A stretch of 64,000 nucleotides of DNA from an uncultured bacterium (lineage in GTDB: Bacteria; Zixibacteria; MSB-5A5; GN15; FEB-12): the NCBI GenBank assembly GCA_965372795.1, contig CBDVDR010000003.1:32001-96000 (forward strand). The letters run 5' to 3'. The first letter of the stretch is position 1, and every line of letters starts with the position of its first letter. Positions 40,511-62,240 of the stretch are shown here, in pieces. A program made the translations under genes and the position numbers. The notes below the pieces were generated by a model. It was given only the letters and a program-made list of their open reading frames with translations. It was not told the DNA's origin and did no database searches.

Positions 40511-43500
40511 TTAGACCATTTTACTAATTGTTTTGGAAAAATATTGATAATAACAGGAGTTGATTATTTTTTTCCAGCTATCTTTTCCGTTATCGATAAT
40601 GTATTGATGACTGATGTCTGAGATAATCCTGTTGGCTTTGTCTTTAAATGAGTTGTCATTTTCATAAAGCCGTACTGAAGACTTCAAAATTAACTCAAAA
40701 ACATTCTGTTGCTGGCCATATGAAAGTGTTTCGTGATAACAACTAATGGCGTCGGATAGGTTGTTCCTCAAGCGATTTGTTTCTCCTTTAATAAAACCAA
40801 TTTCGTTCATAACGAGAATTGAATTAATACTAACCGCTTTTTCCATGGTTTGATCAATTAGGTAATTGATTTCATCTAGATACCGCTCTCCAATAAACAG
40901 TCTACACAAACCTATTGCTGAGCGCATGAAATATTCTGATGAATCAATTTCGTTTGCAAGCTTAATAGCTTCCTTATATTTAATTTTCGCTTTATCAATA
41001 TTTCCGGTATAGAATAAAACCTCACCCAAACGAATCTGACATTCGGCAAAGAGCTCTTTGTCATCAACTTCTTTTGCGAACTTAATTACTTCGAGAAATT
41101 TCGCTTCGGCATCTTCATGCTTCCCTTCGATTAAATCAATATCGCCCAGATTCCCAATTACATAATTGTGGGCATGCGTATCATTAAGTCGGGTAAATAT
41201 TTTGTCAGCGTGTAAGATTAGTTTTCGGGATGAACTGAAACGGCCCAGAATTTTTTGTATGCTTGACAGATTTCCGGAAACATAAGCCTCATCGCGGCGA
41301 TCGCCAATCTGTTTTGTTATTTCCAGAGCATGTCTCATTAATTGTTCGGCTTCCAAAAAATCTCCCTGCTCCCATTTAATTATAGCTAAATTATTAGATG
41401 TTTGTGAATGTACAATCATCCCATTGACATCTTTTCCATATTGTAAACTAAGTTCATAATTTTCTGCTGCCTCATTAAGTTTTCCTTCACCCCACAATGC
41501 CAGACCAAGTTTATTATAAGCATCAGACAGACCTTGGTAATCATCGATGTCTTTGTAAGAATTAATAGATTGTTGGCAACACTCTTGAGCCATTGTAAAA
41601 TTCCCGGAACGCCTCTCTACTTCGGCTAGTATTGTATGAATCCGAGCTGTCAATTTAGAATAATCTTGAATATCTGGGTATTTTAATACGTTTTCTAAAG
41701 CTTCCCGGCATTCATTATATTTTGATTGTTGCCAATCGAGTTGTGCTTTTTCAATAATTGCCGATGTTTTTTGGGAATCGTTATTATCTTTCTCAGCTAA
41801 TTCCTTCCAGGATTTTATCAACTTGTATGCCTTGTCCAAATCACCTTCCAAAACAAGGTATGAACTATAACTCTCATAGTAGTTATAAATATCAGAAGTT
41901 TGGATATCGTTATGTTCTATTGATTCGAGCGAGACTTCACATTGTTTAAACATACGTGATGCTTCACTAAGAGAGAATAGACGGAGAGCATCTTTAGCAG
42001 TTATGAGTGAAAAGGTATATGCTTTCTGCCATTGCTTGGATTTGAAGTAATGATTTGCCAATACTGCAGGAGAGAATGTTGCTTCAGATGATTCGTAGTA
42101 ATTGGCCACTTTCCTATGAGAAGTCAGTAGAAATGATTCGGGAAGGCAAGAGTAAATTATTGTTTGGAATTTTTTATCTGCGAAACTGAATAGTCTGTTT
42201 TCAGAATCGTACTCCAATACTTCATCCTTTTCCAAATTATCAAGCTTATTCCTCAAAGCATTCTTATCTTTATTATCAGTGGTGGTGCTTAATGCGTCCA
42301 AGCTGAACATAGTTTCAAATACAGCAGCCGATTTCAGCAATCTCTTATCAAGTTCGGGTAAAAGATCGAATCTCGAAAGATATATGTCATTAATGTTGGC
42401 AGGTATTTCTGCATCATCAAATGACTCAATTAATTCATACTTGCCAGTAAAGCTGTTTAGTTCAAGTTTGTCCTGTTTATGTAGATGATTAATAAACTCG
42501 GATATGAATTGAGGATTACTTTTCGATATATCGACTAGTTTTTCTGTAAGTTCTAATTCTCTTTTGCCATCACCAAATTGATTTTTAAAATAACTCATCC
42601 ATTCACTGTCAGTGGGTGGGGCTAATTTTAGATGCGTTATTTTTGTGTTCGATAGTTTGCCGATATTCGTATCATCTCTTAAAATTAGGATGAAAATTCC
42701 AGGAAATTGTTTAGGCGAATTTAACAGATGAAGAAGAAACTGTCTTGAATAGTCATTAATTTGATCAAAATCATCAATGATGACAACAACTGGATCAGTA
42801 ACAATTGAAGCTGTCAGCATGCTATAGAGTCCAATGGTCTTCTGATTTTTTTGTTTTTGTGATAAACCTTTACTCCAAATATTATCTTCAACTGGAACAT
42901 CAATAAAATCGCCGATCAGGGGAAGCCATTTTGATTCTATAATTTCAATTGCAAAATCTTTAAGTGATTGATAATGTTTTTTTTGAAAAATCGAGAATAG
43001 GTCATTGAGTAATTTTTTAAGAATCCAGTTTTCACCATATAGAAATGAACGACGTCCCTCAATTGTTATAGAGGGGATTTCATCATTACTTCTGATTGCA
43101 CTTTCAACCAGTGTGCTTTTTCCAACGCCAGCCTCACCGGTAATAACCATTCTCTTAATTTGCGATAAAGGAGTGGGGCTCATAAACCTTTTTAATTGTT
43201 GGTATTCTGTTTTCTGACCGATGATAGTATCGCTTTCGGTATGGCAACTTATCAGTTCGATGATCTCCCGAAATTGATGACATAAAACTTCATTACCGAT
43301 TCCCTTGAGAGATAATTTTTTATTATCAGTTTTGATATTTTCTGGTAGTATCATTCGTAGCTCATTATCTATCAGAACCTGTCCCCAAGATGCGTTAGCC
43401 ATTAATCGTGCGGACATATTAGCTGCCTCACCCATGACAGTATATTCTTTTCGTTTATCTGTTCCAACATCACCACAAAACAGCGAGCCGTTCGCAAGTC

Positions 43501-44566
43501 CAATTTTCAGGTCAAAATCAACATCAATAAGTCCCAGTAATTTTGTGGCACAATGCAAAGCATTCAGTTCATCATCTTCACGCTTTTTAGGAGCACCGAA
43601 TAAAACCAGTAATTTATGACCGTCATAAAAGGGATCAATTCGGGTGATACTCCCGCCGCTTTGAGATATGATTTCAAAAACAGATAAGAGCTTTTTATTG
43701 ATTAATTTTATTTCGTAATCAGCTTGTTCCAATTCATGGTTAACAGATGATCTAAAGTTGGCAAATAGAACCGTCACATCACGAAATTCGGATTGTGAAA
43801 TTTTCATTTTGGAAGTTATTTTGGCTCTTTCTATAAGGTCTTTAGGAAGATACTGTTCGAGTCGCACATCGTGATACATTTCTTCTTCTGAAGATGTTTG
43901 TTTGGAAATGAATATGTCCTTAGAAAACTCTTCAGTATTCTCCAAGAGATAGAAACCATCTTCTACTTGAGATAGTGAGTCATATTGTGGTAACACGCAG
44001 GCAAGATTTTTTCCTATAACCATTTGATTTATTTTGGCAAGGTCACAGGCGTGCATAACATCAGTAATCATTGAACCATAAGGTTCTGCTTCCAATCTAT
44101 AATTTACTTTACCCATTGATGCCAGACTAAAGGAACCTATCTCTGCTCCAATATGAATTTTTAAAGGAGAGTTTTGTAAATCTGATGAAGTCTTATTCAA
44201 ATTTTCGACAGTGCTTAGGGCATGATGAAAAAACTTAGTTATATCAACCGTTTTTGGAAAATATATCCAAACGGCATCTCCGGCAAACTTGAGAATATCT
44301 CCCTGATAATGAAATATCAAATCTGAGACTGATTTAAAAAACTCATTAAGAATATGTGTCAATTTTTCAGGACCAAGTTTTTTATCAATGGATAATTTGC
44401 GAGTAAGCTCTGTGAATCCGGAAGCATCCAGACAGGCTACAATGCCTTCATGGTGAGTGAAATTGTGAAACTTTCCCGATAGGGAATTACTATACCACTC
44501 TATTAATATCTGAGGTAGATGAGGATTAACAAATGCCTTCGCATTGGAAATTTGTTTAACCACCAT
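40511..44566 (-). CDS. Class III nucleotide cyclase (tandem domains) plus STAND P-loop NTPase plus TPR repeats
   Basis: LDASGFT and KFAGDA in domain 1; LFGAP and EYTVMGEAANMSARL in domain 2; Walker A GEAGVGKS, Walker B IIDDFD; C-terminal TPRs. Confidence 0.9.
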   Translation of the reverse strand: MVVKQISNAKAFVNPHLPQILIEWYSNSLSGKFHNFTHHEGIVACLDASGFTELTRKLSIDKKLGPEKLTHILNEFFKSVSDLIFHYQGDILKFAGDAVWIYFPKTVDITKFFHHALSTVENLNKTSSDLQNSPLKIHIGAEIGSFSLASMGKVNYRLEAEPYGSMITDVMHACDLAKINQMVIGKNLACVLPQYDSLSQVEDGFYLLENTEEFSKDIFISKQTSSEEEMYHDVRLEQYLPKDLIERAKITSKMKISQSEFRDVTVLFANFRSSVNHELEQADYEIKLINKKLLSVFEIISQSGGSITRIDPFYDGHKLLVLFGAPKKREDDELNALHCATKLLGLIDVDFDLKIGLANGSLFCGDVGTDKRKEYTVMGEAANMSARLMANASWGQVLIDNELRMILPENIKTDNKKLSLKGIGNEVLCHQFREIIELISCHTESDTIIGQKTEYQQLKRFMSPTPLSQIKRMVITGEAGVGKSTLVESAIRSNDEIPSITIEGRRSFLYGENWILKKLLNDLFSIFQKKHYQSLKDFAIEIIESKWLPLIGDFIDVPVEDNIWSKGLSQKQKNQKTIGLYSMLTASIVTDPVVVIIDDFDQINDYSRQFLLHLLNSPKQFPGIFILILRDDTNIGKLSNTKITHLKLAPPTDSEWMSYFKNQFGDGKRELELTEKLVDISKSNPQFISEFINHLHKQDKLELNSFTGKYELIESFDDAEIPANINDIYLSRFDLLPELDKRLLKSAAVFETMFSLDALSTTTDNKDKNALRNKLDNLEKDEVLEYDSENRLFSFADKKFQTIIYSCLPESFLLTSHRKVANYYESSEATFSPAVLANHYFKSKQWQKAYTFSLITAKDALRLFSLSEASRMFKQCEVSLESIEHNDIQTSDIYNYYESYSSYLVLEGDLDKAYKLIKSWKELAEKDNNDSQKTSAIIEKAQLDWQQSKYNECREALENVLKYPDIQDYSKLTARIHTILAEVERRSGNFTMAQECCQQSINSYKDIDDYQGLSDAYNKLGLALWGEGKLNEAAENYELSLQYGKDVNGMIVHSQTSNNLAIIKWEQGDFLEAEQLMRHALEITKQIGDRRDEAYVSGNLSSIQKILGRFSSSRKLILHADKIFTRLNDTHAHNYVIGNLGDIDLIEGKHEDAEAKFLEVIKFAKEVDDKELFAECQIRLGEVLFYTGNIDKAKIKYKEAIKLANEIDSSEYFMRSAIGLCRLFIGERYLDEINYLIDQTMEKAVSINSILVMNEIGFIKGETNRLRNNLSDAISCYHETLSYGQQQNVFELILKSSVRLYENDNSFKDKANRIISDISHQYIIDNGKDSWKKIINSCYYQYFSKTISKMV

Positions 44567-44915
44567 AAATATATATCCTGATGACTAAAAGTGTCATAAT
44601 ATGAATAGCCTGATCCAAATAATAAGCTTGCTTGCTGTTATTAAATTTCTGGGACTTAATAAAATCCTGAATCCAATGAATTACATAAACGCCTACCATT
44701 ACCAGAAGTGTTGTCAGGCTCATGAAGCTATTATTCTCATGAAGGCTAAGTCCATACGCCAGAAATAAAGTCAGAACAATAATGTAAATTAATACATGCA
44801 AAGACAAAAATACTTTTGATTTGCCCTTGTTCTTAGCCATATTATCCGACTGTAGGGCAAAGTCGCCTATATAGTGTCCAAATAATAAAATGAGTAGTAA
44901 ATCCGGCACAATCAC
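44556..44915 (-). CDS. DUF3307-family small membrane protein
   Basis: GHYIGDFALQSDNMAKNK, LHVLIY, HWIQD, LDQAIH. Confidence 0.85.
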   Translation of the reverse strand: MIVPDLLLILLFGHYIGDFALQSDNMAKNKGKSKVFLSLHVLIYIIVLTLFLAYGLSLHENNSFMSLTTLLVMVGVYVIHWIQDFIKSQKFNNSKQAYYLDQAIHIMTLLVIRIYIYGG

Positions 44916-44924
44916 TCCATCAAT

Positions 44925-46397
44925 TTACGGTAAACGAATTATAATAACTGGGTAATTATCTTTATTATTTTCTATCACAAATTCTCCCTCATGATGATGA
45001 ATTATCTGCTCAATATAATCCCAGCCAAAAATGCTATACTGGTTTAAAGCTTTTCTGACATTTTCAGGTTCCAAAATAGCAAGATGGGGAATAATTCTGA
45101 TTTCAGAAAATCTACTATCCGGCGAACGGCATAAGTCGATTTTTATTGAATATTGAATATCCTTTTCTAAGTTGAGCAAAGCGTCCGAAGCCGAGTTTAG
45201 TAAACTAAATATCATATTCTGAAGTGATACCTCATTCATATGAACTCGACTCGGAAAATCTTTATGCACATCCAGACTAAATTCAATATTTTCAACTTCC
45301 TTCATCGACTGCCAATGTTTCAGAATGGTCTTCATCAAAACACGAATATCTATAAATGTAAAATTTGATTCTGTTTTATAAGTGTCAACTAAATGACGGG
45401 AATCATTTTTCAGATCCATGATAGTGCAGTTGACTTCTCGATTGGAACTTTCGATACCTTTGGTATCGTTATCTGAAATATCTTTTGACAAATTATCAAT
45501 ATTACTTTTGAGGATATCTATCTCGACAAAAAACTGTTTAGCCAATTCATAGGTAGATTGCTTGGTATTTAAATACCGGTCTTCAATTGCTTTAATACTT
45601 GTAAATCCCGAAATTTCTGTCAAGTCCTGTCCCATTACGAGATAGAGTAATTCGTCTCTATAGGTTGTTAAAATGGTACAGGTCAAAAACGCCGGAAATT
45701 CCTCGCCGACCCGCAAGCCGTTTACTTTACCACTCCAGGTGTTTTGCAATTCCTGCTGACAGTCTGAAAAATTGAAATGACTGAAAAGGTCATCAATTTT
45801 ATATTTTTTATCTTTATTGAGGCCAAATATCCTGATGGCTGACTTATTCATATTAAAAATGTCGCCAGATTTAGTTACGAGAAGAATTGCTGATGGTGAT
45901 TGATCAATTACCGAATCAAGAAAACAGTTGAGTTCATTCAATCTTTGATTGGTTTCCGTTAGCTCAAGATTATTCTTCTCAAGATCCATTACTCTTGATG
46001 AATCAGACTCGCGTAGCTTGTTACTTAAACTCTCTAGGACATTTATTGCAAATGAGGGTTTTTCCTTGATGATTTTTTCAAAATTACTCTTGGTTATCTC
46101 CAGAACTTCACAAGCAGTCTTGGATATGACAGATGCAAATCGTGGAGACTCTTCAACCAAGGCCATCTCGCCAATGAATTCACCGGCACTACGAGTTGCA
46201 ATTGTTACTGGCTGGTTTGTTTCTGAGCTTAATTTAGTGATTTTAACATCGCCCCTAAGGATTAATAACATGGTAGTACCAATATTACCCTCAGAAAATA
46301 TTATATCACCCGGACTGTATTTCGAGTATTTTCCGGCTAACTTAACCAGAAATAAATCAAGTGTGGAATTTTCCAACCAAGTTTCTTCATTATTCAT
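44925..46397 (-). CDS. cNMP-binding plus PAS plus degenerate histidine-kinase-like protein
   Basis: IFSEG, GEFIGEMALVEESPRFASV (cNMP); VIDQSPSAILLV (PAS); eroded H/N/G boxes. Confidence 0.8.
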   Translation of the reverse strand: MNNEETWLENSTLDLFLVKLAGKYSKYSPGDIIFSEGNIGTTMLLILRGDVKITKLSSETNQPVTIATRSAGEFIGEMALVEESPRFASVISKTACEVLEITKSNFEKIIKEKPSFAINVLESLSNKLRESDSSRVMDLEKNNLELTETNQRLNELNCFLDSVIDQSPSAILLVTKSGDIFNMNKSAIRIFGLNKDKKYKIDDLFSHFNFSDCQQELQNTWSGKVNGLRVGEEFPAFLTCTILTTYRDELLYLVMGQDLTEISGFTSIKAIEDRYLNTKQSTYELAKQFFVEIDILKSNIDNLSKDISDNDTKGIESSNREVNCTIMDLKNDSRHLVDTYKTESNFTFIDIRVLMKTILKHWQSMKEVENIEFSLDVHKDFPSRVHMNEVSLQNMIFSLLNSASDALLNLEKDIQYSIKIDLCRSPDSRFSEIRIIPHLAILEPENVRKALNQYSIFGWDYIEQIIHHHEGEFVIENNKDNYPVIIIRLP

Positions 46398-51794: not shown

Positions 51795-52283
51795 ATGGGT
51801 TGGTTCACAAAGATTTTTTCTGGAAGCGTTGGCACATTAGTTGAAAAAGTTGGGGGAGTGGTTGATGGTTTTCATCTAAGTGGAGAAGAAAAACAGAAAT
51901 TCAAAGTTGAGATGGAGGCTTTACTTCAAAAACGAGATTCTGAAATTGAAGAGACAATAAGAACGCAATTACAAGCAAAAGAAAGAATTCTGGTTGCTGA
52001 ATTAACTCAGGGTGACAGTTATACTAAACGTGCCCGTCCCACCGTTGTCTATGCCGGATTAGGCTTTATTTTCTATATTTATTGTTTAGTACCTGTTGTT
52101 GCGCAAATTTTTAATGCACAAATGCCTATGATGGAACTTCCCACCGCCTTTTGGGCAGGTTGGTCGGGAATTGTGGCAACCTGGAGTATAGGCCGAACCG
52201 TGGAAAAAAGAGGTGGCGGGAATCGAGTTACCAGAGCAATAACAGGCAGTCGTCTTTTTGATGATGATGCGCCCGAAGGATAA
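51795..52283 (+). CDS. Holin-like protein (GTA 3TM-holin type)
   Basis: LVEKVGGVVDGFHLSGEEK, IL.AE..GDSYTKRARP followed by TM segments, GRTVEK; AGGAGG RBS. Confidence 0.75.
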   Translation: MGWFTKIFSGSVGTLVEKVGGVVDGFHLSGEEKQKFKVEMEALLQKRDSEIEETIRTQLQAKERILVAELTQGDSYTKRARPTVVYAGLGFIFYIYCLVPVVAQIFNAQMPMMELPTAFWAGWSGIVATWSIGRTVEKRGGGNRVTRAITGSRLFDDDAPEG

Positions 52284-52291
52284 ATTTTATT

Positions 52292-53119
52292 TTGATAATT
52301 AAAGATCATAAACTGGAAGGTGATAAAGTCACTTATCAAGGGTCGCCAAATTTTGGAGCCAAATTTGATAATAATGATCTGGATACAATAATAATTCATT
52401 ATACGGCAGGTTCATCGGCGGAGTCATCAGTTAGAACGTTATGTAACCCAGATTCAAAATCCTCGGCACATCTGGTAATAGGTCGGAACGGTTCAATATT
52501 TCAATTAGTACCCTTTGATACTATATCCTGGCACGCTGGCAAAAGTAGTTATTCCGGCCGTCATGGTTTCAATAAGTATTCTATTGGGATTGAAATAGAT
52601 AATGCCGGAAAATTATCACACAGCGGTGATAAGTATGTTTCCTGGTTTGGGAAGAATTATAAAGAAAATGAAGCCTTAAAAGCTATTCATAAAAATGAAA
52701 CAGAATCCGGTTATTGGCATATTTATAATGAAATCCAACTCAGCTTGGTTCAGGAAATTTGTTCGCTTCTTATAAGTAACTATGGAATTAAAAGTATTTT
52801 AGGTCATGATGAAGTCTCACCGGGGCGAAAAATAGATCCCGGTCCTGCCTTTCCAATTGATAAAATAAGAGAACATTTACTTTTTAGTGATCGCAGTAGT
52901 GATCGCCCGATTGAAGTCCCTATCAATAAAAACCAAGGAATAATTACAGCATCTAAATTGAATTGCAGATCAGAACCATATATTAGTTCCAAAATTGTTA
53001 GGGAACCTCTATCGAAAGGTGATATTGTTGAGATTCTTCATGAAAGTGATGGCTGGTATAAGATAGAATCCAAAATTTATGTCTGGGTAAAGAAGGATTA
53101 CGTCAAAACTATAAAATAG
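52292..53119 (+). CDS. N-acetylmuramoyl-L-alanine amidase (Amidase_2) with C-terminal SH3b
   Basis: IIIHYTAG, SAHLVI, SWHAG, SIGIEIDN, GHDEVSPGRKIDPGPAF; LNCRSEP...GWYKI; no signal peptide. Confidence 0.92.
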   Translation: MIIKDHKLEGDKVTYQGSPNFGAKFDNNDLDTIIIHYTAGSSAESSVRTLCNPDSKSSAHLVIGRNGSIFQLVPFDTISWHAGKSSYSGRHGFNKYSIGIEIDNAGKLSHSGDKYVSWFGKNYKENEALKAIHKNETESGYWHIYNEIQLSLVQEICSLLISNYGIKSILGHDEVSPGRKIDPGPAFPIDKIREHLLFSDRSSDRPIEVPINKNQGIITASKLNCRSEPYISSKIVREPLSKGDIVEILHESDGWYKIESKIYVWVKKDYVKTIK

Positions 53120-53226
53120 ATTAGTTTCGTCTAAATTGTAAAATCTAATCAAACAGGTTGTGTCTGGGAATCCCTCATTAAGATTGCAGGTGTTTACAAT
53201 TAATACAAATTCAAGAAAAATAAAGA

Positions 53227-53402
53227 TGGCAGGATCACAACGATCTTGTCCAACTTGGAATGATCTTTAGATTAGTTAACAACAGGAAATGGGTTACTTA
53301 AAATTGATAAGGATCATTAATGGTGATGGGATAGATAGAAAGGGGCAGACGAGGTCGTCTGCCGCCCACGGAGATGGCAGGATCACAGGGATTCTGCCCA
53401 AC
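53227..53402. repeat. Two REP-like copies (53227-53254, 53375-53402) flanking a partial module D
   Basis: TGGCAGGATCACA...CCAACTTGGAATGATCT occurs twice around the module D core. Confidence 0.8.
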
Positions 53403-53488
53403 TTGGAATGATCTGTAAAGTCAATTATTACAAAAGATCACATCTTAAATTCAAATAACTTCATATAAAATTAGACTTCGTGATTCAG

Positions 53489-53542
53489 GAACGATTGTTC
53501 CCCGTTAGTTCATCGAAATCACAATATCTGAACGATAGTTCA
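53489..53542. promoter_or_regulatory. Pair of GAAC-N4-GTTC palindromes (candidate regulator sites)
   Basis: GAACGATTGTTC at 53489-53500 and TGAACGATAGTTCA at 53529-53542, 41 bp apart. Confidence 0.55.
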
Positions 53543-53573
53543 TTTCCTGTTCATGTGTACCAACAACTTACCT

Positions 53574-53589
53574 TGGCACAGTTTCTGCA
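53574..53589 (+). promoter_or_regulatory. Sigma54 (RpoN) -24/-12 promoter
   Basis: TGGCACAGTTTCTGCA with GG-N10-GC spacing, upstream of an operon that abuts a sigma54 activator gene. Confidence 0.82.
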
Positions 53590-53747
53590 TAGTTAACTGT
53601 AAATGTTAACACTAAACAAAATCAAATTATCACACAGGGAGGGTAAGGAATGGTAGAACTTTCGAAAGGGTGATTATTAAAATCGCCAATGAATGTAGGG
53701 AATAAATTTTTGAACAATAAAACAAACTAATGTGAAAGGATTTTATT

Positions 53748-54395
53748 ATGCATGATTTGGATCAGGTCTCATTGGAAATGGATGATTACGAAACAGAGTA
53801 TCTTGAAGATGATGCTGAAAATTTTGCTGATGAGTATGGTTTTGATGATGAGAGTCCCTTTGATGATGCAGAAGAGATGGAGTTAGCTTCTGAGTTGTTA
53901 TCTGTATCAAACGATGAAGAATTGGAATATTTCCTGGGTAGTCTCATCAAGCGAGTATATCGCGGTGTTAAGAAAGTTGCCAGAAGTCCAATTGTCAGAG
54001 CTATTGCAAAGGTAGCAAGACCGCTGGTCAAGAAAGCATTGCCATGGGCTGGCCGCGCAGTGGGAACCTATTTTGGTGGACCTGCCGGTGGTGCTCTTGG
54101 TGGAAGATTGGCATCGTTTGCAGCCTCTAAATTAGAAATTGATCTGACCGGACTTACTCAGGAAGAAGCAGAATTTGAAGTTGCCCGTAAGATGGTAAAA
54201 TTGATTGGTGCTGCGGCTAAGAAAGCTGCTACTATGCCTCAAACAGGATCACCCGCTGCGGTTGCATCTACTGCTATAAAATCAGCTGCTAAGAAAATCG
54301 CTCCCGGTTTAGTACAAAGTGCTCATAAAGCATTTGGATCAAGAAGCGGTCGCTGGGTTCGTCATGGACGTAAAATTATCATCCACGGAGCATAA
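53748..54395 (+). CDS. Hypothetical protein with alternating acidic and cationic amphipathic blocks
   Basis: 26 D/E and no K/R in residues 1-60; then 14 K/R and no D/E with GGPAGGALGG; AAAGGA RBS. Confidence 0.85.
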   Translation: MHDLDQVSLEMDDYETEYLEDDAENFADEYGFDDESPFDDAEEMELASELLSVSNDEELEYFLGSLIKRVYRGVKKVARSPIVRAIAKVARPLVKKALPWAGRAVGTYFGGPAGGALGGRLASFAASKLEIDLTGLTQEEAEFEVARKMVKLIGAAAKKAATMPQTGSPAAVASTAIKSAAKKIAPGLVQSAHKAFGSRSGRWVRHGRKIIIHGA

Positions 54396-54406
54396 GGAAT
54401 TATCAA

Positions 54407-55756
54407 TTGATACGCAATTCTTCAAAATATCTCTTGGATCAAGAAGCTCACGCTCTTTTATCACGACTTGATAGTGTAAAGCCGTTTTCTATGCACATGC
54501 CGATGGTCATGGCGGCGGCTATATCTCCAGCGGCTATGTCGGCGATAGAAAACATGATTCAAGTTCAGGGTAAGCGATTGAGGACGATGATCAAATCTTT
54601 TATCATCTGGTTAAAATCATCAGAAGGTCAAAGATCATCTCCTCAAATAGCCCAAAAGAAATTCACACTGTTGAGATTACGCTTTGGCATTATCTTGTCG
54701 CAGTTTGATATCTTTGCGGAAGCTGTTACCCAGCGAAGTGAACATGAGTATGGAGTGAGTTTATCGGCTTTGGATGTTCTTGCCGAGGATGCTTTGAAGA
54801 TTGACGGGTTCAGTTTTGATGAACCACCGATGATTTGTTATTTGGATCGTGGTTTGGGTGCGGCAATTCGCCGCGCCCAGACTAAGTTACCGGGTGGCAC
54901 TAAAAATCCGGTTTCTATTATCCGTGTTCCGCGTGAAAGAATGATCGGATCTGCTGTTGCCAGTTCGATTGTTCATGAAGTTGGCCATCAAGCGGCAGCA
55001 ATATTGGATCTTGTACCGGCTGTTAAGAAAACTTTTTCTAAAATGGTGGCACAGGATAAACAACATGCTGATATATGGTCAGTTTATCAACGATGGACTT
55101 CAGAAATGCTTGCCGATTTTTGGAGTGTGGGAAAAGTAGGCATTACCGGTTGTTTGGGCATTATGTCTGTTGTCAGTCTGCCCCGACCATTGGTATTCCA
55201 TTTTTCCGAACGTGACGTACATCCAACCCCCTGGTTAAGAGTCAAGCTTAGCTGTGCAATGGGTAATCTATTATACCCTCATCCTCAATGGATGAAATTA
55301 GCCGGTATGTGGGAAGAATTGTTTCCATTGGATGGACTTGATTCAAAAGTACGTCTCAAAATTGAACGGTTACAACGCTTTATTCCTCAAGTTGTATCTT
55401 TGATTGGGAGCCATAAATGTAATAAATTAAATGGGAAACAATTAAAAGAAATAATGCCTGTCGAGTCCCGACAACCAGATCAGTTACTTTCCAGATTTTC
55501 AAAATGGAAAGGACAGACGCAACTGATGAACGAAGATCCTCCGACCTTAACATTTGCTGTAATTGGGCAGGCGAAATTCAACAGACTATTAAACCCGATG
55601 GATGAAAGTCCTCTTTTAGACAGCATTTTTAAGTACTGGGCGTTGAAAAGGGCAATCAATACCGGGCGAAAATGTACTATGGGAGACTTACAGACGAAAA
55701 AAATGAATAATCGTGAGTATATGTTATCTAGAAAGGAGATTAACTATGCCAATTGA
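54407..55756 (+). CDS. HEXXH-motif protein (putative gluzincin-like metallopeptidase)
   Basis: SSIVHEVGHQ, downstream WTSEMLADFW and DVHPTPWLRV. Confidence 0.75.
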   Translation: MIRNSSKYLLDQEAHALLSRLDSVKPFSMHMPMVMAAAISPAAMSAIENMIQVQGKRLRTMIKSFIIWLKSSEGQRSSPQIAQKKFTLLRLRFGIILSQFDIFAEAVTQRSEHEYGVSLSALDVLAEDALKIDGFSFDEPPMICYLDRGLGAAIRRAQTKLPGGTKNPVSIIRVPRERMIGSAVASSIVHEVGHQAAAILDLVPAVKKTFSKMVAQDKQHADIWSVYQRWTSEMLADFWSVGKVGITGCLGIMSVVSLPRPLVFHFSERDVHPTPWLRVKLSCAMGNLLYPHPQWMKLAGMWEELFPLDGLDSKVRLKIERLQRFIPQVVSLIGSHKCNKLNGKQLKEIMPVESRQPDQLLSRFSKWKGQTQLMNEDPPTLTFAVIGQAKFNRLLNPMDESPLLDSIFKYWALKRAINTGRKCTMGDLQTKKMNNREYMLSRKEINYAN

Positions 55757-57638
55757 ACTTATTTACTCGTCAGGACCATTTTTTGAAGAGGAGATCTTTG
55801 AGATTGTGATCTCAGGTCATGAAAGTGGGAATGAGTATAATATAATCGTTGAAGGACCTTCAAAAAGTTTAAAATGGGAATGGACTCAGAATTCCGGGAG
55901 ATTTGATTGGCCCAGGATTGATAGTTCCGGAAATAATACCCAGGATTTAATTGGCACTCAAATCCCAATTGCAACTTTTAAGTCAAATTATGGTGCTTAT
56001 GCACCTGCGGGTTCTTATCAGGTTACAGTCCAATTAATAGATAAAAAGGCAAGAAATAAAGCGTCTAAAATTATTGAAACTATTGTAAGCGACTTTCAGA
56101 TTCAGATTCAATTGCCACCCACGAATGTTCAACCTCCGGCACAGGCGAATGCAGCAATTGATGCCATGCAAAATATTAATTCTACATTAGAAAAGGCTGG
56201 AAGTACACGTTTGCTTCCTCCGGGGCATGAAGTCACTGAGAATTTAGCCCTATGGGGGGTGATTAAAGGATCGGTTATTGAATTTGATAAACTTGAGAAA
56301 AAGCTGCTTGAAGTAATGTGTAATGAACAAATAAATGATCATGAAAATGATCATGATAAAATTCCCGAAAAAATTACTTCAAAACGCCAGTCGTTAAAAG
56401 ATATTAATTTAGCTAAAAATTTAAGCAATAATAAAGATCGAACCAATAAAGATATTTATTGGGATGCGAATTCTTATGAAACATTAAAAAATCAAACCGA
56501 TATTTTTCTGCTTGAAGAAGTTGGTTCCGAATGGGATGTTAAAAAAATAGCTGAAGTAATTCAAAAGAAGCTCAAGAAATATATTGACCATCCATCAGTC
56601 ATTTCGGAATCAAAAATCCAGGAATGGATTGAAAATTATAAGTGTGAAAACCTTGATTGCTATGTATTTCCATATCTTTGTGACATCAAAGAAGTCAAAG
56701 ATATGCCTGAGCCGGATGAATCAAACTGTAAGGGGGTTTTACAACAAAGAATGTGTCATCCCTTATTAGTTGAGCTAATCTGGTGTTATTGGCATGAAGA
56801 ATCAATGCTTTCTCAGGCAATGAAAGCAATCAACTTGCGTTTTCAAAATAAACGTATGAAAAAGGGTCCTGATGCGCTTAGTGCTCTGAATACAAATCCT
56901 TTAAGAAAGTTAAGCAATCTTCTCTGGGGTCATATTCAAGAAGAACAAAAACGCTTAACAGTAAAAAGGAGAGCATACGAGTATGACCATCATTATGGTA
57001 TAACATTGCATGGTGATGCGGTTGGAACATTTATGCCGGCCGATAGTCGTACCAGATTTCTTGAATCATTTCATCGCTTACTTCATCTTTGTACTAACTT
57101 TTACAAAGAATTTGATGATATGACAATTCAGGCTGACGGATTTCCAATTAAAAGCGCCTTGCGTGAAGTTCACATGAATCTCGCCGAAGGTGCTCATAAT
57201 CAATATGGTGATATGCCCTGGATTGCAAAAAGAGAAATGCTAATTGAACAATTTATACTTTCCCGTCCGGAAATGAGAGAATTTTTGGGTGGCAGAGTGA
57301 TGGTTCCTTATAAAGAAGGATGGATGGAAGCAGTTGACACTATGAAACGTTTACAGGGGTGGACTGATACCAGTGTCGAACAATTTGCCTCACTGGGACG
57401 CCTTGGTGAACAAATTATACTTTCAATTCGATATGGAAACTGGAATGCAGAAGGAATTAATGCTGATCATGCTTACCAATGGGCAGCCTTTTGGAGAGAT
57501 GAAATTCAGGATTATATCCACTCTTACCGGTCTGTGTCAGGTGTTGATTTAACTGAACCAAGTCAGGTGGATGGAACTCAACCATCGGTCCATCTAAAAA
57601 CCAGATTAGATGCCCAACAAAAGAAAGTTGCCGGTTAA
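55746..57638 (+). CDS. Hypothetical protein, 630 aa, no recognised catalytic motif
   Basis: AAGGAG RBS before ATG 55746, overlapping the previous stop; Trp/His-rich helical C-terminal half. Confidence 0.8.
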   Translation: MPIELIYSSGPFFEEEIFEIVISGHESGNEYNIIVEGPSKSLKWEWTQNSGRFDWPRIDSSGNNTQDLIGTQIPIATFKSNYGAYAPAGSYQVTVQLIDKKARNKASKIIETIVSDFQIQIQLPPTNVQPPAQANAAIDAMQNINSTLEKAGSTRLLPPGHEVTENLALWGVIKGSVIEFDKLEKKLLEVMCNEQINDHENDHDKIPEKITSKRQSLKDINLAKNLSNNKDRTNKDIYWDANSYETLKNQTDIFLLEEVGSEWDVKKIAEVIQKKLKKYIDHPSVISESKIQEWIENYKCENLDCYVFPYLCDIKEVKDMPEPDESNCKGVLQQRMCHPLLVELIWCYWHEESMLSQAMKAINLRFQNKRMKKGPDALSALNTNPLRKLSNLLWGHIQEEQKRLTVKRRAYEYDHHYGITLHGDAVGTFMPADSRTRFLESFHRLLHLCTNFYKEFDDMTIQADGFPIKSALREVHMNLAEGAHNQYGDMPWIAKREMLIEQFILSRPEMREFLGGRVMVPYKEGWMEAVDTMKRLQGWTDTSVEQFASLGRLGEQIILSIRYGNWNAEGINADHAYQWAAFWRDEIQDYIHSYRSVSGVDLTEPSQVDGTQPSVHLKTRLDAQQKKVAG

Positions 57639-57655: not shown

Positions 57656-58762
57656 ATGCTGGATTTTACTTCGGCTCTTTATCTGGGAATGAAGCACCCG
57701 AGCTGGTCTCTGCCATCATGGGACCAGCTTACTTTGGGTGTTCCGGGAATTCTTTATGAGCCGCCAATTGTAACCAAATTATCTGGTGAACTATCAAGAC
57801 TAATTGGTTGTAGATGCGCAACTTTTGCACCCTCAACCTTACATCTCTTTTGGGATTTGTTTAACTCGCTCCGAGCCTACAATGTAAAAATATTTTATGA
57901 TTCCGGAATTTACAATATTGCACGGTGGGGAATAGAGCGGGCTGAATATAAAGGTATTAAAGCCTTTCAATTTTCGCATCATGATCTGTTCTCTCTGCGA
58001 CTATTGCTTCAGGAACAAATTAGTGGAAGGTGCAAGCCGATAATAGTTTGTGATGGTGTTTGTCCGACCTGCGGAGATTATGCTCCCCTTAATGATTATT
58101 ATGAAATCATTCGGGATTTTGGAGGACAATTGATAATTGATGATACCCAGGCATTGGGAATTTTGGGGAAATCTCCTTCGGGAAGTAATCCTTTTGGACA
58201 CGGAGGGGGTGGCAGTTTGCAATATCATAATATCGGAGGACCGGAAATTGTTGTAATCGGATCTTTGGCAAAAGGTTTTGGTGTACCGGCGGCTGTGATG
58301 GCATCAGGAAAAAAAATGATGAAAAATTTTAAAAATAAAAGTAAAACCAATATTAGCTGCAGTCCGGCATCATTGGCGGATTACAGCGCAATTTCACGAG
58401 CCTTGATATTGAATAAAAATTGCGGTGAAAAACTCAGAACAAAACTTTTAAGAAATATCATCTTCTTCAATACTATTATAAATAAAAATTCAAACCTGTC
58501 TGATAATATATTTCCAATTCAATCCATCAATTTTCAAAATAATAACATGGCTTATGATACGTTTTTACAACTTAAGCAATCAGGAATAACAACTGTTTTG
58601 AGTGAAAATGAATTTAAAAATCCCTGTATCAAATTATTAATTACATCATCGCATACTCAAAAAGAGTTATATAAAACAGCTTCAATAATAAATAAAATTA
58701 TGAATCGAAATTCTTACCATTTTCAAAGTAGCGGAGGGTTGTATGGCAGTGTGTCGATGTAA
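57656..58762 (+). CDS. PLP-dependent class II aminotransferase (alpha-oxoamine synthase/BioF-like)
   Basis: LDFTSALYLG, FSHHD, VCDGV, IDDTQALGILG, GSLAKGFG (PLP lysine). Confidence 0.85.
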   Translation: MLDFTSALYLGMKHPSWSLPSWDQLTLGVPGILYEPPIVTKLSGELSRLIGCRCATFAPSTLHLFWDLFNSLRAYNVKIFYDSGIYNIARWGIERAEYKGIKAFQFSHHDLFSLRLLLQEQISGRCKPIIVCDGVCPTCGDYAPLNDYYEIIRDFGGQLIIDDTQALGILGKSPSGSNPFGHGGGGSLQYHNIGGPEIVVIGSLAKGFGVPAAVMASGKKMMKNFKNKSKTNISCSPASLADYSAISRALILNKNCGEKLRTKLLRNIIFFNTIINKNSNLSDNIFPIQSINFQNNNMAYDTFLQLKQSGITTVLSENEFKNPCIKLLITSSHTQKELYKTASIINKIMNRNSYHFQSSGGLYGSVSM

Positions 58763-59969
58763 TAAAAGACAAAATGAATTTTTAGATGATGAGTGGATTG
58801 GAAGTTATAACCTGGAGCAATATAATATTCTGAATAAACAACAAATAGATCCGGAAATATTGTTATCTGAAAATGAGTTTACCGAAACGGAGATGTCCAA
58901 TGAATCAGAAGATGAATTAGAAAATGAATTTGCAATTACAAATGAGATATCATCAACTCGCAACCGTACTTATGTGAAATGGGTTCAACATTCTCTAAAT
59001 AAAATATTGGGCATAAGACTTGGGGTCGATGGCATTTATGGAAGAAATACAAAACAAGCATTAAAATATTTTCAAACATTTGCAGGTATTTCTGTTGACG
59101 GGATTGTTGGCTCTCAAACAGAAAAAGCACTTACTGAATATAGTACTATAAAAAAGCCAGTTGCTATATCTTCATCCCGTTCACATCAAGTTGATTCAGT
59201 TCGTTGGTGTCCTGTAAAAAGTAAAAGAGCAACTTTGAAATGCACATCTCCCGGAACAAAAAAATGTCCAGCTATATCAAAATTATTATGTGTACCTCAT
59301 ATCAATCAAATCCCACTTGAGTATGTCTCAGGAGTAGGGGTTGATCGCAAAACAGGTTTGCAGGTTATTACTCGCAGAACAACAAGGACAAATTTCAAAA
59401 TGACGTCCGGTGTATATAAAGGATTGGCTGGATTTGTGATATATATGAAGAAATTTGGAATACCGGTTGAAGCAATACTATCTCAAGGGGCGCATCTTTG
59501 CCGCTGTGTCGGTAGAACTAACAGATTATCACAACACTCATATGGCAATGCGTTTGATTTTGCCGGAGTCAGATGGGCACTGATAAACAAACCTCCCAGT
59601 CGTTTAAGGGAAACAATCGTTCATAATTATTGGAATATAGAGCAACGCGGGCTGCTCAGGAGGATAAATGCATGCCTCCGTTTAAACTTCAGTCTGGTTC
59701 TTGATTATAATTATAACTCCGATCATTTTTCTCATTTTCATGTCGAGGCGGGGAGTGGTATGAACCCCCGAAGCAGGAGTACGATCCTATTTGTTCAAGA
59801 GGCGCTTGGACATATTCTTCAACGAGATATATCTGTTAATGGGAGGATGGATGCTTATACCCAGCAGGCGATAATTGATTATTCCGGGAATGATGAAAGT
59901 GTAATTTCCAACAGCACTGAATTAAATAGTATTTTCAAAAACTTGTTTTCAGAAATTGCTGCCGGATAG
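58743..59969 (+). CDS. Acidic leader plus peptidoglycan-binding domain plus extensin-like/M15-type Zn peptidase
   Basis: VKWVQHSLN..VDGIYGRNTKQALKYFQ..VDGIVG.QT; CR...RLSQHSYGNAFD and HFSHFHVE; second degenerate PG-binding repeat. Confidence 0.8.
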   Translation: MAVCRCNKRQNEFLDDEWIGSYNLEQYNILNKQQIDPEILLSENEFTETEMSNESEDELENEFAITNEISSTRNRTYVKWVQHSLNKILGIRLGVDGIYGRNTKQALKYFQTFAGISVDGIVGSQTEKALTEYSTIKKPVAISSSRSHQVDSVRWCPVKSKRATLKCTSPGTKKCPAISKLLCVPHINQIPLEYVSGVGVDRKTGLQVITRRTTRTNFKMTSGVYKGLAGFVIYMKKFGIPVEAILSQGAHLCRCVGRTNRLSQHSYGNAFDFAGVRWALINKPPSRLRETIVHNYWNIEQRGLLRRINACLRLNFSLVLDYNYNSDHFSHFHVEAGSGMNPRSRSTILFVQEALGHILQRDISVNGRMDAYTQQAIIDYSGNDESVISNSTELNSIFKNLFSEIAAG

Positions 59970-59994: not shown

Positions 59995-60759
59995 ATGATA
60001 AATTTAAATAAAAATTCAAAAAATATCCCAGTCATAGATTCTCATTGTCATTTTGGATCTGGTGAAGGCTTAACCCACCATTGGAACACAAGGGCAAATT
60101 TAAGCAAGTATAAACCCAGAGCAAGAGCTGCCGGAATAATTCGCACTGTTTTATTCCCGGTTATTACTACCGATTGTTTAAAAGCAAACAGAGAAGTTGG
60201 TCTGTTTATTAAAAAAAATCCAAATAAGTATTTTGGTTTTGCTATGATTCATCCCGTCATTGATAAAAATAGAGTGTTCAAAATGATTGAAGAATCGGTT
60301 GTGAAATTTGGTTTTTGTGGAATTAAAGTTCATCGCCATAGCGGTAGTATTACCAGAGAAATCTGTGAAGTTGCTCAATATTTTTCGATACCAATATTAT
60401 ATGATGTGATGGATGATGCCGGGTCGATTGAATTTTTTGCAAATGAATATCCGGAGGTGAATTTTATTATACCTCATCTAAGTTCTTTTGGAAATAATTG
60501 GAAAGCTCAAAAAAGTTTTATTCCATATCTGACAGAATACCCTAATGTGTTTACTGATTCTTCAGGTGTTCAATGGTTTGATTTGTTGAAGGAAGCTTTT
60601 GAAAAAGCTGGTGCTGAAAAAATACTTTTTGGTTCGGACGGTCCCTGGCTACACCCTGCTGTTGAACTTTCGAAAATAATGTTGTTAACAACAAATCGGG
60701 AAATGTTATATTTAATGTTAATTCAAAATATTCTCAGACTTACAAATCAAAAACTATAA
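59995..60759 (+). CDS. Amidohydrolase_2 family metallohydrolase
   Basis: IDSHCH, GIKVH, FIIPHL, NVFTDSS, KILFGSDGP. Confidence 0.9.
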   Translation: MINLNKNSKNIPVIDSHCHFGSGEGLTHHWNTRANLSKYKPRARAAGIIRTVLFPVITTDCLKANREVGLFIKKNPNKYFGFAMIHPVIDKNRVFKMIEESVVKFGFCGIKVHRHSGSITREICEVAQYFSIPILYDVMDDAGSIEFFANEYPEVNFIIPHLSSFGNNWKAQKSFIPYLTEYPNVFTDSSGVQWFDLLKEAFEKAGAEKILFGSDGPWLHPAVELSKIMLLTTNREMLYLMLIQNILRLTNQKL

Positions 60760-60797: not shown

Positions 60798-62240
60798 TTA
60801 ACTAATAATATTTTTTAGGGTTTCATATTTTTTTTCAAGCTGTTGTGCCCATCGTTTTGAGCACTGCAGTTGATTGGCCGCATCCGAAAGTATTTTTTCC
60901 TTTTTAATCTGATTTCCATTTTGTTTTTTAAGTACATCATTTATTACAATTTGCAAAGCCATCTCTCTGATTTTTTCAATTATAAGTGTCAGTCCATTAC
61001 CGCTAAATAGTGCCCGTCTTAAAGAGGATTCCAAATCTCTATCGGGCCAAAGGATATCCTCTTCTGAATCACTTAGAAAATCCTCTTCAGGGATACAACC
61101 AATTGATAGAAGGGTTCTGTCACTTGCAAGATGAGCAATTTTGAGAACCAGATGTTTTAATTCTCTAACATTTCCGGGATAATTTCTGTTATATAAAAAA
61201 TCCATCACATGTTGATCTAAAACAAACGCCGTAGATTTATTATTGAACTGATTTAGAAAATGCTCTACTAGCAATAAAATATCATCTCTCCGTTCACTTA
61301 GAGAAGGTAATTTGAATAACCAGTTTGTGATGCGAAAATATAAATCGCTTCGAAAATTCCCCTGAGCAACATCCTTTTTGATATCTCTATTAGTTGCACT
61401 AATTAATCTAAATTTGGTTTTTCTCCAAACACTTGAACCGACTCTTTGATATGTTCCCTCCTGCATTACGCGTAATAGTTGAGACTGCAACGTCAGCGGT
61501 AAATCACCTATTTCATCTAAAAATAGGGTGCCTCCATTAGCAATTTCAAAAGCACCTTTTCTTGAGTTTACAGCTCCTGTAAAAGCTCCTCTTTCATGTC
61601 CAAAAAATTCACTGCCAGAAAGTTCGGGGACAATAGTGGTGCAGTCTAAAATTACATATTTACCTTTATTTTGTTTGGGATCCAAATCGTGAATTAGATT
61701 GGCAATTACTTCTTTTCCTGTCCCGCTTTCGCCGGTTATCAAGATCGAATCCAGAGTAAAATAAGCAACCTCTACAACTTTTCTAATTACATTTTTCCAT
61801 AGTTTATTATTACCAATAACGGCATTTTTTGAACAAGAAATTTTTAAAAGCTCTTCAACTTTTGACCAGCGTTTTATTCTATAAAATATCTCATCTGGTG
61901 TAATAGATTCTGATTCCCAGGATAAAAAATCTACCGATCCGGCACGAACAACTTTTTTTGCAAACTGATAATTTTGTTTATTATCCTTCAGCCCTATAAC
62001 CAGTACGCTTGAGTATATTTGCAAACTGCTAATAGTGGTGAATAATTCGTCATTTAGATCATCACAAAATAAAACATTTAAACAGTTATCACTTACAGTT
62101 AATTGTTTTGTAGATTCAATCTCTTCCAAACCAAATTTAAGGAATTTGTTACGAACAATATTTTCAATCAAACTATTTGGTTTACAAAAAAAATGAAGTT
62201 TGATGATAAATAAATTATTATATGAAAACAATAAACACAT
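60798..62240 (-). CDS. Sigma54-dependent transcriptional activator (bEBP) with atypical N-terminal domain
   Basis: [52 protein letters not shown]. Confidence 0.95.

Follow-up and report, generated by a model that had tools for sequence, protein, structure and literature searches.

A charge-segregated glycine-zipper protein heading a candidate envelope-attack operon in an uncultured Zixibacteria bacterium

In alpha-defensins, cathelicidins and frog-skin peptides, an anionic propiece balances a cationic membrane-active part, which is activated by proteolysis. PspA and Vipp1, the bacterial ESCRT-III proteins, are membrane-directed helical proteins controlled by sigma-54 and PspF, and follow a logic of electrostatic autoinhibition. 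Here we analyse a bacterial protein of 215 amino acids (aa) in which strict segregation of charge is combined with a glycine zipper. It is encoded in a stretch of 64,000 nucleotides (nt) from an uncultured bacterium of the Zixibacteria (GenBank assembly GCA_965372795.1, contig CBDVDR010000003.1, positions 32,001 to 96,000 of the forward strand; hereafter the window, whose numbering is used throughout), where it is the first gene of an operon that also encodes a protein with a HEXXH motif and a cell-wall enzyme. Our favoured reading, which we hold tentatively, is that this lead protein is a self-masked, membrane-active pro-protein at the head of a sigma-54-switched operon for attack on the cell envelope.

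By analogy, the lead protein appears to be most like the antimicrobial precursors with an anionic propiece on the one hand and glycine-zipper toxins and translocation motifs on the other, and would be a member of neither group. With the former it shares an acidic region that balances a cationic body. Those precursors, however, are eukaryotic, secreted with a signal peptide and short in their mature parts, whereas the lead protein is bacterial and cytoplasmic, has a folded body of ~150 aa and a junction predicted to lie within a helix, and its cleavage is putative. Membrane-active glycine-zipper toxins of bacteria include CdzC and CdzD of Caulobacter (PMC5380434); in the type VI secretion system effector Tde1 an N-terminal zipper serves to carry the enzyme across a membrane (PMC10240207), and the type VII secretion system effector TelE is a glycine-zipper protein as well (PMC10434224). 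The likeness would be that, within a small protein or segment acting on membranes, conservation is highest at the repeated GxxxG. In contrast to these toxins, to which it has no sequence homology, the lead protein carries its zipper in a non-hydrophobic, Arg-containing segment, looks soluble, is helical over its 215 aa and has a tuned tail; its locus is under apparent sigma-54 control, with no type I, VI or VII secretion genes nearby.

The operon recalls holin-endolysin cassettes, and the poly-Arg leaders of its enzymes recall activatable cell-penetrating peptides; here too the analogy would stop short of membership. As in the cassettes, signal-less peptidoglycan hydrolases are encoded beside a small protein that is assumed to open the cytoplasmic membrane: a PG_binding_1/Extensin-like_C protein lies in the operon, and 10 peptidoglycan hydrolases were found in related loci. 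Holins, however, have at least one transmembrane helix, whereas the lead protein has none, as no 19-residue window exceeds a hydropathy of 0.84 (threshold 1.6; a GTA_holin_3TM protein encoded upstream reaches 2.17). The HEXXH protein has no phage homologue, neither the lead protein nor the orphan core proteins match a PHROG, the lead protein's predicted fold has no viral match, and besides its sigma-54 switch the operon has three further core genes, orphan or enzymatic. Activatable cell-penetrating peptides are synthetic polyanion-linker-polycation hairpins that are opened by a protease (PMC3694763), and the acidic runs before poly-Arg in the leaders of the operon's enzymes have exactly this polyanion-polycation layout. 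These peptides are engineered, though, and our literature searches found no natural bacterial counterpart, nor any description of the protein family or of the operon.

The charge of the acidic tail is matched to that of the basic body

The open reading frame (ORF) of the lead protein begins with MHDLDQ, and since M1, H2 and D3 are kept in homologues, its start codon is fixed. Minus-strand ORFs over the region are shadows, because the plus frame is kept from these residues to the last ones in hundreds of homologues. Residues 1-60 contain 26 D/E and no K/R and lead into DEELEY (56-61). Residues 62-129 (FLGS...SKL) contain 14 K/R and no D/E, 13 of the basic residues lying in 62-120 (to GGPAGGALGGR). 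Residues 130-146 hold 6 D/E, with EAEFE among them, and residues 147-214 again have 14 K/R without any D/E; the C-terminal end is SGRWVRHGRKIIIHGA. A reading made from the sequence alone, which this analysis follows up (the sequence-only reading), had rested on such counts, namely 26 D/E without K/R, EELEY, EAEFE and an acid-free basic tail, and we reproduced them. The alternation of acidic and basic blocks that it described is non-random: among the 60 charged residues the sign switches 3 times, compared with 29.9 ± 3.8 times in shuffled sequences (minimum 13), and none of 200,000 shuffles got down to 3.

The block layout is a trait of the family. In 118 homologues the N-terminal region has a median of 27 D/E and 1 K/R, the first basic block is free of acidic residues in 110, the second acidic patch is 17 residues long in all and carries 5-8 D/E, and the second basic block has a median of 14 K/R. 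The family consensus starts with MHD(I/L)DRT, followed by an acidic run of variable length and by PFDExEEMELAxELLxVxDExELDQFLGxLIK; a basic block ending in KKALPxAGxAxGTxFGGPAGGAIGG then precedes GLELEGLSPEDQEFEVARRxVRLAG, and the C-terminal part contains AAKKHAPGL and, at the very end, RSGRWVRRGRKIILxGV. Between its conserved MHD(L/I)D start and the conserved PFD..EEMELAxELL, the acidic region varies in length and sequence yet is always acidic; across the family it is 50-99 residues long.

We then compared the charges of tail and body after splitting the 118 aligned homologues at the alignment column of F62. The net negative charge of the N-terminal tail (14-47) follows the net positive charge of the body (9-32) with a Spearman coefficient of 0.91, and the whole protein stays near neutral (median -6). 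As the homologues are related to each other, we also used 59 non-overlapping nearest-neighbour pairs; the contrasts within these pairs gave a Pearson coefficient of 0.83 with a slope of 0.77, and the sign was shared in 35 of the 45 informative pairs (p = 2.5e-4). A regex-based split could create an artefact, and the correlation held with the alignment-column split and with the sister contrasts. The length and sequence of the tail are free, yet its charge is held to that of the body. In every homologue the acidic tail precedes the basic body with its charge matched to it, and since none of 26 candidate proteins of 30-117 aa was a homologue, the body was not met without its tail. This covariation is the main new result of the analysis, and it supports charge masking, the role that the sequence-only reading had given to the acidic propiece. 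Such tuning is what a cis-acting electrostatic mask would predict, and it would fit a protein that merely needs solubility as well.

The first seven residues of the tail (53748-53768) stand apart from this picture. MHD(L/I)D(R/Q)(T/V) is kept across phyla though the acidic run that follows varies freely, it recurs internally at module fusions (P0126), and none of the explanations considered below accounts for it.

The sequence-only reading had drawn boundaries at E-(L/F)-E motifs, and the acid-to-base junction proved to be where conservation is strongest: among the 118 homologues E58 and F62 never vary, and 111 retain L59, 108 L63 and 116 G64. Beyond the junction, the glycine zipper that it had invoked is likewise real, and a strongly amphipathic cationic helix is present as well. 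This helix, predicted at residues 81-97, has a hydrophobic moment (muH) of 0.73 and a net charge of +5, and the zipper is nearly invariant, with G102, G106, G110, G114 and G118 kept in 114, 118, 113, 118 and 117 homologues. The zipper does not lie in a hydrophobic, membrane-inserting helix: the 19-residue hydropathy around it is at best 0.64-0.66, R103 and R120 flank it, and its predicted local distance difference test score (pLDDT) is 60-64. In the C-terminal Arg/Trp hairpin G201 and W203 are invariant, and R202, R205 and G207 are kept in 112, 117 and 117 homologues. The N-terminus (MHDLDQVSLEMDD...) has no hydrophobic stretch, and no signal peptide was found.

AlphaFold2, run with 118 sequences, gave a model of the lead protein with a mean pLDDT of 77.8 and a predicted template modelling score (pTM) of 0.68. 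Residues 1-33 are disordered (pLDDT about 50); helices are predicted at 40-51, 56-70, 81-97, 99-110, 112-128, 138-162, 169-184 and 186-196, followed by the C-terminal beta-hairpin. Residues 41-70 reach a pLDDT of 92-96 and residues 131-180 one of 87-94, and both E-(L/F)-E motifs are placed in the middle of helices, ELEYFLG in 56-70 and EAEFEV in 138-162, each with a pLDDT of about 90 or more. The model had no Foldseek match in the PDB at E<=0.001 and none among the viral models of BFVD; the best hits of a wide VIA search, histone doublets with Z 5.1, were not significant, the ESM Atlas returned unnamed clusters only, and a profile search of the PDB gave only designed helical repeats at E>=0.035.

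No family in Pfam (E<=0.01), NCBIfam, PADLOC or PHROG covers the lead protein, and no relative was found in the PDB by sequence profile. It nevertheless belongs to a large family: 670 proteins matched at E<=1e-3 among 1685 candidates that share words with it, and 2636 clusters (at 50% identity) did so at E<=1e-3, 1278 of them at <=1e-30. For genomic context, contigs from one genome per species were searched with a pattern made from the second acidic patch; 228 of the 531 matching stretches encode a relative, and locus counts out of 80 given below refer to the best 80 of these 228. The 80 loci come from Desulfobacterales, Entotheonella, Chloroflexota, Bacteroidota, Nitrospirota, Acidobacteriota, Myxococcota, Actinomycetota, Alpha-, Beta- and Gammaproteobacteria, Verrucomicrobiota and Clostridia. 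The distribution is patchy. The source genome has a single copy, and none of 40 relatives of that genome (1 from the same genus, 23 from the same family, 16 from the same order) carries the family. Within the operon the GC content is a little higher (0.42 at 54-56 kb) than in the sequence around it (0.34-0.40).

Longer forms also exist. There are 68 relatives of 378-2000 aa, 27 of which carry 2-4 junction motifs; exactly one GRW hairpin is present in 57, none in 10 and two in 1. P0122 has four modules in a row with one terminal hairpin, P0129 has two modules, and P0179 is a natural fusion in which an enzyme-type leader (acidic, then Arg/Pro-rich), PG_binding_1, an unknown domain and CxCxxC precede a complete module. 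In 21 of 61 motif-bearing loci, two of the 21 being doubtful, 2-3 paralogous genes are adjacent. The multi-module forms suit a polyprotein and a repeat protein alike and therefore do not settle the question of cleavage. An apparent fusion of a paralogue to the HEXXH protein (L041) was an out-of-frame ORF run-through. DUF697, a label of the JGI on some relatives, was set aside as a label of the source, since the lead protein has no Pfam family at E<=0.01. TRI4_N (PF23135, cut-off 27.8 bits) is barely exceeded by the multi-module relatives P0126 and P0129 (28.0 and 30.0 bits), with the matches falling on ELLEIxDExELDxF, and four other relatives score below the cut-off; the lead protein has no TRI4_N match, and a search of its own genome gave none at its gene.

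Operon partners and sigma-54 switch

As no conserved gene lies upstream of it, the lead gene opens the operon. Downstream of its homologue, BLASTP (E<=1e-5) found the HEXXH gene in 79 of the 80 loci, the gene for a 641-aa protein in 73, a BioF/Kbl-like gene in 57 and an amidohydrolase gene in 44. Many of these loci end early; in the 50 that have at least 9 kb downstream, here called complete, the counts are 50, 50, 42 and 36, and a sigma-54 activator gene is present in 41.

The HEXXH gene, which the sequence-only reading had already paired with the lead gene, is therefore a fixed neighbour of it. Its product is a putative gluzincin metalloprotease: H190, E191, H194 and E233 are invariant in 51 sequences. 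The AlphaFold2 model (pLDDT 91.8) has a single protease-like fold match, to BepA of family M48 (VIA Z 7.7, root-mean-square deviation 4.6, 148 aligned residues, residues 103-411); the VIA list consists mostly of generic three-helix bundles on residues 1-110, and Foldseek put BepA at rank 16 with a probability of 0.33 and found nothing at E<=0.001. No Pfam match was found in 51 members, no match in a profile search of the PDB, and none among phage records. Six plasmid or chromid records contain homologues without useful annotation, 4 of them covering at least 80% of the query, and homologues lie on four rhizobial or Paraburkholderia megaplasmids or chromids. A complex prediction for the lead protein with the HEXXH protein scored 0.01 and 0.00; controls were not run and no inference is drawn from it.

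The 641-aa protein has a variable N-terminus, with CarboxypepD_reg or Ig-like matches in a few members, and a conserved part without Pfam match; searches of the PDB by sequence and profile gave 0 matches, and the ESM Atlas nothing useful (score 0.76). Its GTG start overlaps the HEXXH gene by 44 nt, so the real start may lie later. The net charges of the two proteins are opposite, positive in 51 of 51 HEXXH homologues (median +14) and negative in 38 of 39 homologues of the 641-aa protein (median -9). This is only suggestive, and would hint at an electrostatic pairing of the HEXXH protein with acidic tails and of the 641-aa protein with basic bodies. The BioF/Kbl-like enzyme keeps the context of the pyridoxal phosphate (PLP) lysine, GSLAKGFG, and has DDTQALG where canonical 8-amino-7-oxononanoate synthase has DDAHG, which amounts to a change from His to Gln. 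Its NCBIfam scores far below the cut-offs suggest a non-canonical reaction.

None of the conserved operon proteins has a signal-peptide-like N-terminus, and no core protein reaches a 19-residue hydropathy of 1.6, the one exception being a stretch inside the BioF-like enzyme, at its PLP lysine; hence the operon includes no classical membrane machinery. For the lead protein, the HEXXH protein and the conserved part of the 641-aa protein, nothing was found in Pfam, NCBIfam, PADLOC or PHROGs, and because these three obligatory proteins are absent from those collections and, by sequence, from the PDB, each represents a new family that is amenable to structural study.

A variable slot separates the gene of the PLP enzyme from that of the amidohydrolase. 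We scanned 64 ORFs from this slot in related loci, and the 41 with a Pfam match comprised 15 trypsin-like proteases, 10 peptidoglycan hydrolases (Amidase_2, Muramidase, VanY, Glucosaminidase, GH25, M23), 6 PG_binding_1 proteins (two with OmpA and one with an LCAT-like lipase domain), 3 OmpA-only proteins, 6 M20 peptidases or fragments and 1 class-V aminotransferase. Leaders were compared in a set of 39, made up of 38 of these ORFs and the slot gene of the window; two M20 fragments and the aminotransferase were left out. None of the 39 appears to bear a signal peptide. In 21 there are at least 8 D/E within 20 residues, in 9 at least 8 K/R within 20 residues, and 10 have an E-PF-E motif resembling the conserved PF(D/S)E of the lead protein; the leader of the window's own enzyme has 10 D/E within 20 residues and no signal-peptide-like stretch. 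The poly-basic runs often begin abruptly after acid (...DSELEI|RRRRRGRR, ...SELEDEVG|RRRPRPRK, ...AESAY|RRRRRRRRRR), with ELE at 3 of 9 such junctions. With acidic and poly-basic leaders on the slot enzymes, the acid-then-base layout is a hallmark of the whole system. A more specific link, ELLxV...ELDQFL as a motif shared with the wall enzymes, was rejected: it is confined to paralogues of the lead protein, with one doubtful match in L010.

A separate feature of these leaders is CxCxxC (for example CSCVQCQ or CNCSKCQ), present in 11 of the 39 and in different phyla (e.g. L017:14764, L049:13401, L052:7552, L078:16171) and also just before the module in P0179. A zinc knuckle is one possibility, a recognition tag another.

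A near-consensus sigma-54 promoter precedes the operon, and its pattern has no other plus-strand match in the 64-kb window. Of 79 loci, 34 carry this pattern ahead of the homologue, usually 58-100 nt from its ATG; the background frequency is 0.0125 per 400 nt. Two dyads upstream of the promoter are candidate sites for the activator; thirteen other loci from several phyla have paired dyads of the type GCGAAG-N4-CTTCGC at the equivalent place, mostly with a spacing of 40-43 bp, and GAA-N6-TTC is the core common to all of them. The activator encoded in the window, an enhancer-binding protein whose N-terminal part aligns with the receiver regions of NtrC1 and LuxO, has a homologue in 49 of the 80 loci, with its gene almost always directly behind the amidohydrolase gene and on the opposite strand. 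A look-up of sequencing runs covering 53400-56400 listed none.

Proposed mechanism and rival explanations

In the mechanism that we favour, the body of the lead protein would be neutralised, soluble and harmless to the producer as long as the acidic tail is in place. When the activator fires, the mask would be removed or displaced, most plausibly by the HEXXH protein, which is the candidate because it is the obligatory zinc protein of the operon. The unmasked polycation would then bind anionic membranes, where the glycine zipper would oligomerise and produce a lesion. Such a lesion would give the signal-less enzymes access to the cell wall, either that of the producer or, after release, that of a neighbour; being signal-less, the operon enzymes would seem to have no other way out of the cytoplasm. 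A bolder version, which we regard as unlikely though worth stating, is that the operon amounts to a novel system for protein delivery or lysis without membrane-embedded machinery, which would make it a natural counterpart of activatable cell-penetrating peptides: polycations in the lead protein and in the leaders would be masked in cis by tuned polyanions, unmasked by the HEXXH protein on a sigma-54 signal and, with the zipper, would ferry wall hydrolases, proteases and lipases across the producer's membrane or the outer membrane of a competitor. If the favoured reading is right, bacteria of more than a dozen phyla would share an unrecognised, horizontally spread module for breaching the envelope. 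Its safety catch would be electrostatic, a tail tuned residue-for-residue to the basic weapon, in place of an immunity protein or a membrane-embedded holin, and this would be a new principle in bacterial lysis and antagonism. It would also explain how signal-less wall enzymes outside prophages get to their substrate, and would offer natural designs, tuned by evolution, for protease-activated membrane-crossing tags and for lysins that penetrate the outer membrane.

Several points weigh against masking followed by membrane attack. Any function that needs a soluble, near-neutral protein fits the charge covariation equally. The zipper segment is non-hydrophobic and contains Arg, unlike classical membrane-embedded zippers. 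Residues 40-215 are predicted as one helical domain, in which the junction lies mid-helix with a pLDDT above 90, so that the model offers a protease no exposed linker, and the fold may include the acidic helices permanently. The match of the HEXXH protein to a protease fold is weak, and the mechanism gives no account of what the 641-aa protein, the BioF-like enzyme and the amidohydrolase do.

The single predicted domain bears most directly on the question of cleavage. The sequence-only reading had considered a polyprotein that yields two membrane-active peptides, and this part of it fared poorly: a single domain contains the two confidently predicted helices in which the proposed boundaries fall, the second acidic patch, a highly conserved helix of fixed length, is not a spacer, and the two acid-base halves are not demonstrably homologous, an internal duplication having received weak support (hhalign E 0.017, probability 2.7%). 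A strict precursor, either a polyprotein or a relative of the ribosomally synthesized and post-translationally modified peptides (RiPPs), cut at E-L-E junctions into two or more peptides with ELLxVxDExELDQFLG as a leader for the HEXXH, PLP and amidohydrolase enzymes, is accordingly judged very improbable. The multi-module ORFs do look like multi-core precursors and the tandem paralogues are precursor-like, the spacing E58-L59-x-x-F62-x-G64 is that of double-glycine leaders, one relative comes close to the model of a type-A lantibiotic leader (E 5e-4, 20.2 bits against a cut-off of 21.7), and the operon has genes resembling those of modifying enzymes. Yet conservation runs opposite to that of RiPPs, where a conserved leader precedes a short variable core: here the ~150-aa 'core' is 40-60% identical across phyla and the acidic leader side varies (50-99 residues). 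The residue after G64 is K in 57, S in 30, N in 15, G in 8, D in 6 and R in 2 of the 118 homologues, with no conserved GG, GA or GS as at the end of a double-glycine leader; no C39 peptidase or ABC exporter was among the Pfam matches of the scanned operon genes and the 64 slot ORFs; and one terminal hairpin in most of the longer forms is the pattern of a repeat protein with one terminal element. The single predicted domain would suit a protein that is never cleaved, an intact scaffold or structural subunit like the charge-zippered subunit that the sequence-only reading had given as its other option; acidic and basic blocks of neighbouring molecules, and the enzyme leaders, would zip together electrostatically into an assembly, coat or condensate that stores or organises the lytic enzymes until release. 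A confident domain that includes the junction, the first position in the operon, tandem paralogues and multi-module ORFs suited to a high-copy building block, the acid-then-base layout common to the enzymes and the conserved charge balance would all be in keeping with it, and it stays a serious rival. We nevertheless rate it as rather unlikely, since no scaffold, capsid or filament protein was matched by the fold (best VIA Z 5.1, nothing in the PDB by Foldseek or in BFVD) and the invariant zinc-site residues of the obligatory HEXXH partner would go unexplained.

Two other explanations keep the tail as an autoinhibitory element and change what the body does, and we give little credence to either. 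In one, the lead protein would protect, as a membrane stabiliser or an immunity protein, binding and sealing the producer's membrane as PspA does or neutralising the poly-Arg leaders while lytic enzymes are made. In favour of such a role would be that sigma-54 and a dedicated activator control the operon, that the basic amphipathic helices come with a tail of opposite charge which could be autoinhibitory, as in the logic of ESCRT-III and PspA, and that this acidic tail could titrate poly-Arg leaders. No likeness to PspA, Vipp1 or ESCRT-III in sequence or fold was seen, however (nothing in Pfam; a Foldseek hit to CdvB2 with E 2.0 is noise), the acidic part is N-terminal and thus of opposite polarity, the neighbours encode lytic enzymes and not stress-response proteins, and glycine zippers and Arg/Trp hairpins are generally traits of membrane-damaging, not membrane-sealing, proteins. 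In the other, the Lys/Arg/Ala-rich body would bind a polyanion such as DNA, RNA, polyphosphate, lipopolysaccharide or teichoic acid, much as in HMGB1 and the single-stranded-DNA-binding proteins of phages, where an acidic tail competes for the binding surface. In keeping with this, the helical body is basic and rich in Ala and Lys, the charge of the acidic tail is tuned, and histone doublets head the VIA list (1f1e, Z 5.1; 7n8n, Z 5.0), with Z-scores that nevertheless lie below the tool's own noise level for helical proteins. Moreover, the neighbourhood is wholly envelope-directed and has no nucleic-acid enzymes, and the invariant glycine zipper would be left without a role.

Feature positions and flanking sequence

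Positions of the features are collected in Table 1.

Table 1. Features of the operon and its upstream region, in window coordinates
Feature	Position	Strand	Basis or remark
Two dyads GAACGATTGTTC / GAACGATAGTTC, candidate activator-binding sites	53489..53541	+	upstream of promoter; 41 bp apart
Putative sigma-54 promoter TGGCACAGTTTCTGCA (-24/-12)	53574..53589	+	near-consensus; 174 nt before ATG
Charge-segregated glycine-zipper protein (lead protein), 215 aa	53748..54395	+	ORF with ATG start; first gene of operon
Acidic N-terminal region, residues 1-61	53748..53930	+	D/E and K/R content of residues 1-60
Junction motif ELLSVSNDEELEYFLG, residues 48-64, acid-to-base	53889..53939	+	family conservation (most conserved)
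Cationic amphipathic helix PIVRAIAKVARPLVKKA, residues 81-97	53988..54038	+	predicted helix
Glycine zipper GxxxGxxxGxxxGxxxG	54051..54101	+	family conservation
Second acidic patch, residues 130-146, family consensus GLELEGLSPEDQEFEVA	54135..54185	+	within predicted helix 138-162
C-terminal cationic Arg/Trp beta-hairpin GRWVRHGRKIIIH, residues 201-213	54348..54386	+	predicted strands 202-206 and 209-213
Orphan HEXXH protein, 449 aa	54407..55756	+	motif VHEVGHQ; next gene after lead gene
Orphan 641-aa protein, variable Ig-like N-terminus, conserved helical C-terminal domain	55713..57638	+	in all complete loci
Divergent BioF/Kbl-type PLP-dependent acyltransferase-like protein	57656..58762	+	Aminotran_1_2; bioF 68.5 bits, cut-off 426
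Signal-less cell-wall enzyme with acidic N-terminus, PG_binding_1 and Extensin-like_C	58743..59969	+	slot gene of the window
PF04909 amidohydrolase	59995..60759	+	in 36 of 50 complete loci
Dedicated sigma-54 enhancer-binding activator	60798..62240	-	Sigma54_activat 1.3e-57; convergent with operon

Outside the operon, a 1351-aa adenylate/guanylate cyclase-AAA_16-TPR (STAND-like) protein is encoded at 40511-46397 (minus strand) beside a cNMP-binding/PAS protein; we see no reason to link them to the operon. Directly upstream of the promoter, 51795-53119 (plus strand) encodes the GTA_holin_3TM holin mentioned above (162 aa) and an endolysin-like Amidase_2+SH3 protein, with no other phage genes near the pair. 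The holin occurs in none of the 80 related loci and the amidase in one, where it lies inside the operon; neither was found in the 50 complete loci. Its presence here may be a coincidence, or the pair may be a local add-on through which a classical exit route is supplied.

Rfam had no match in the intergenic region that precedes the lead gene. Upstream of the dyads this region contains two direct repeats of 46 nt (53224-53269 and 53372-53417, plus strand), which are 87% identical and 148 nt apart and have only these two copies in the 3.35-Mb genome, with a GC-rich hairpin (53344-53363) between them. The repeats are possibly further regulator sites, or the remnant of an island insertion.

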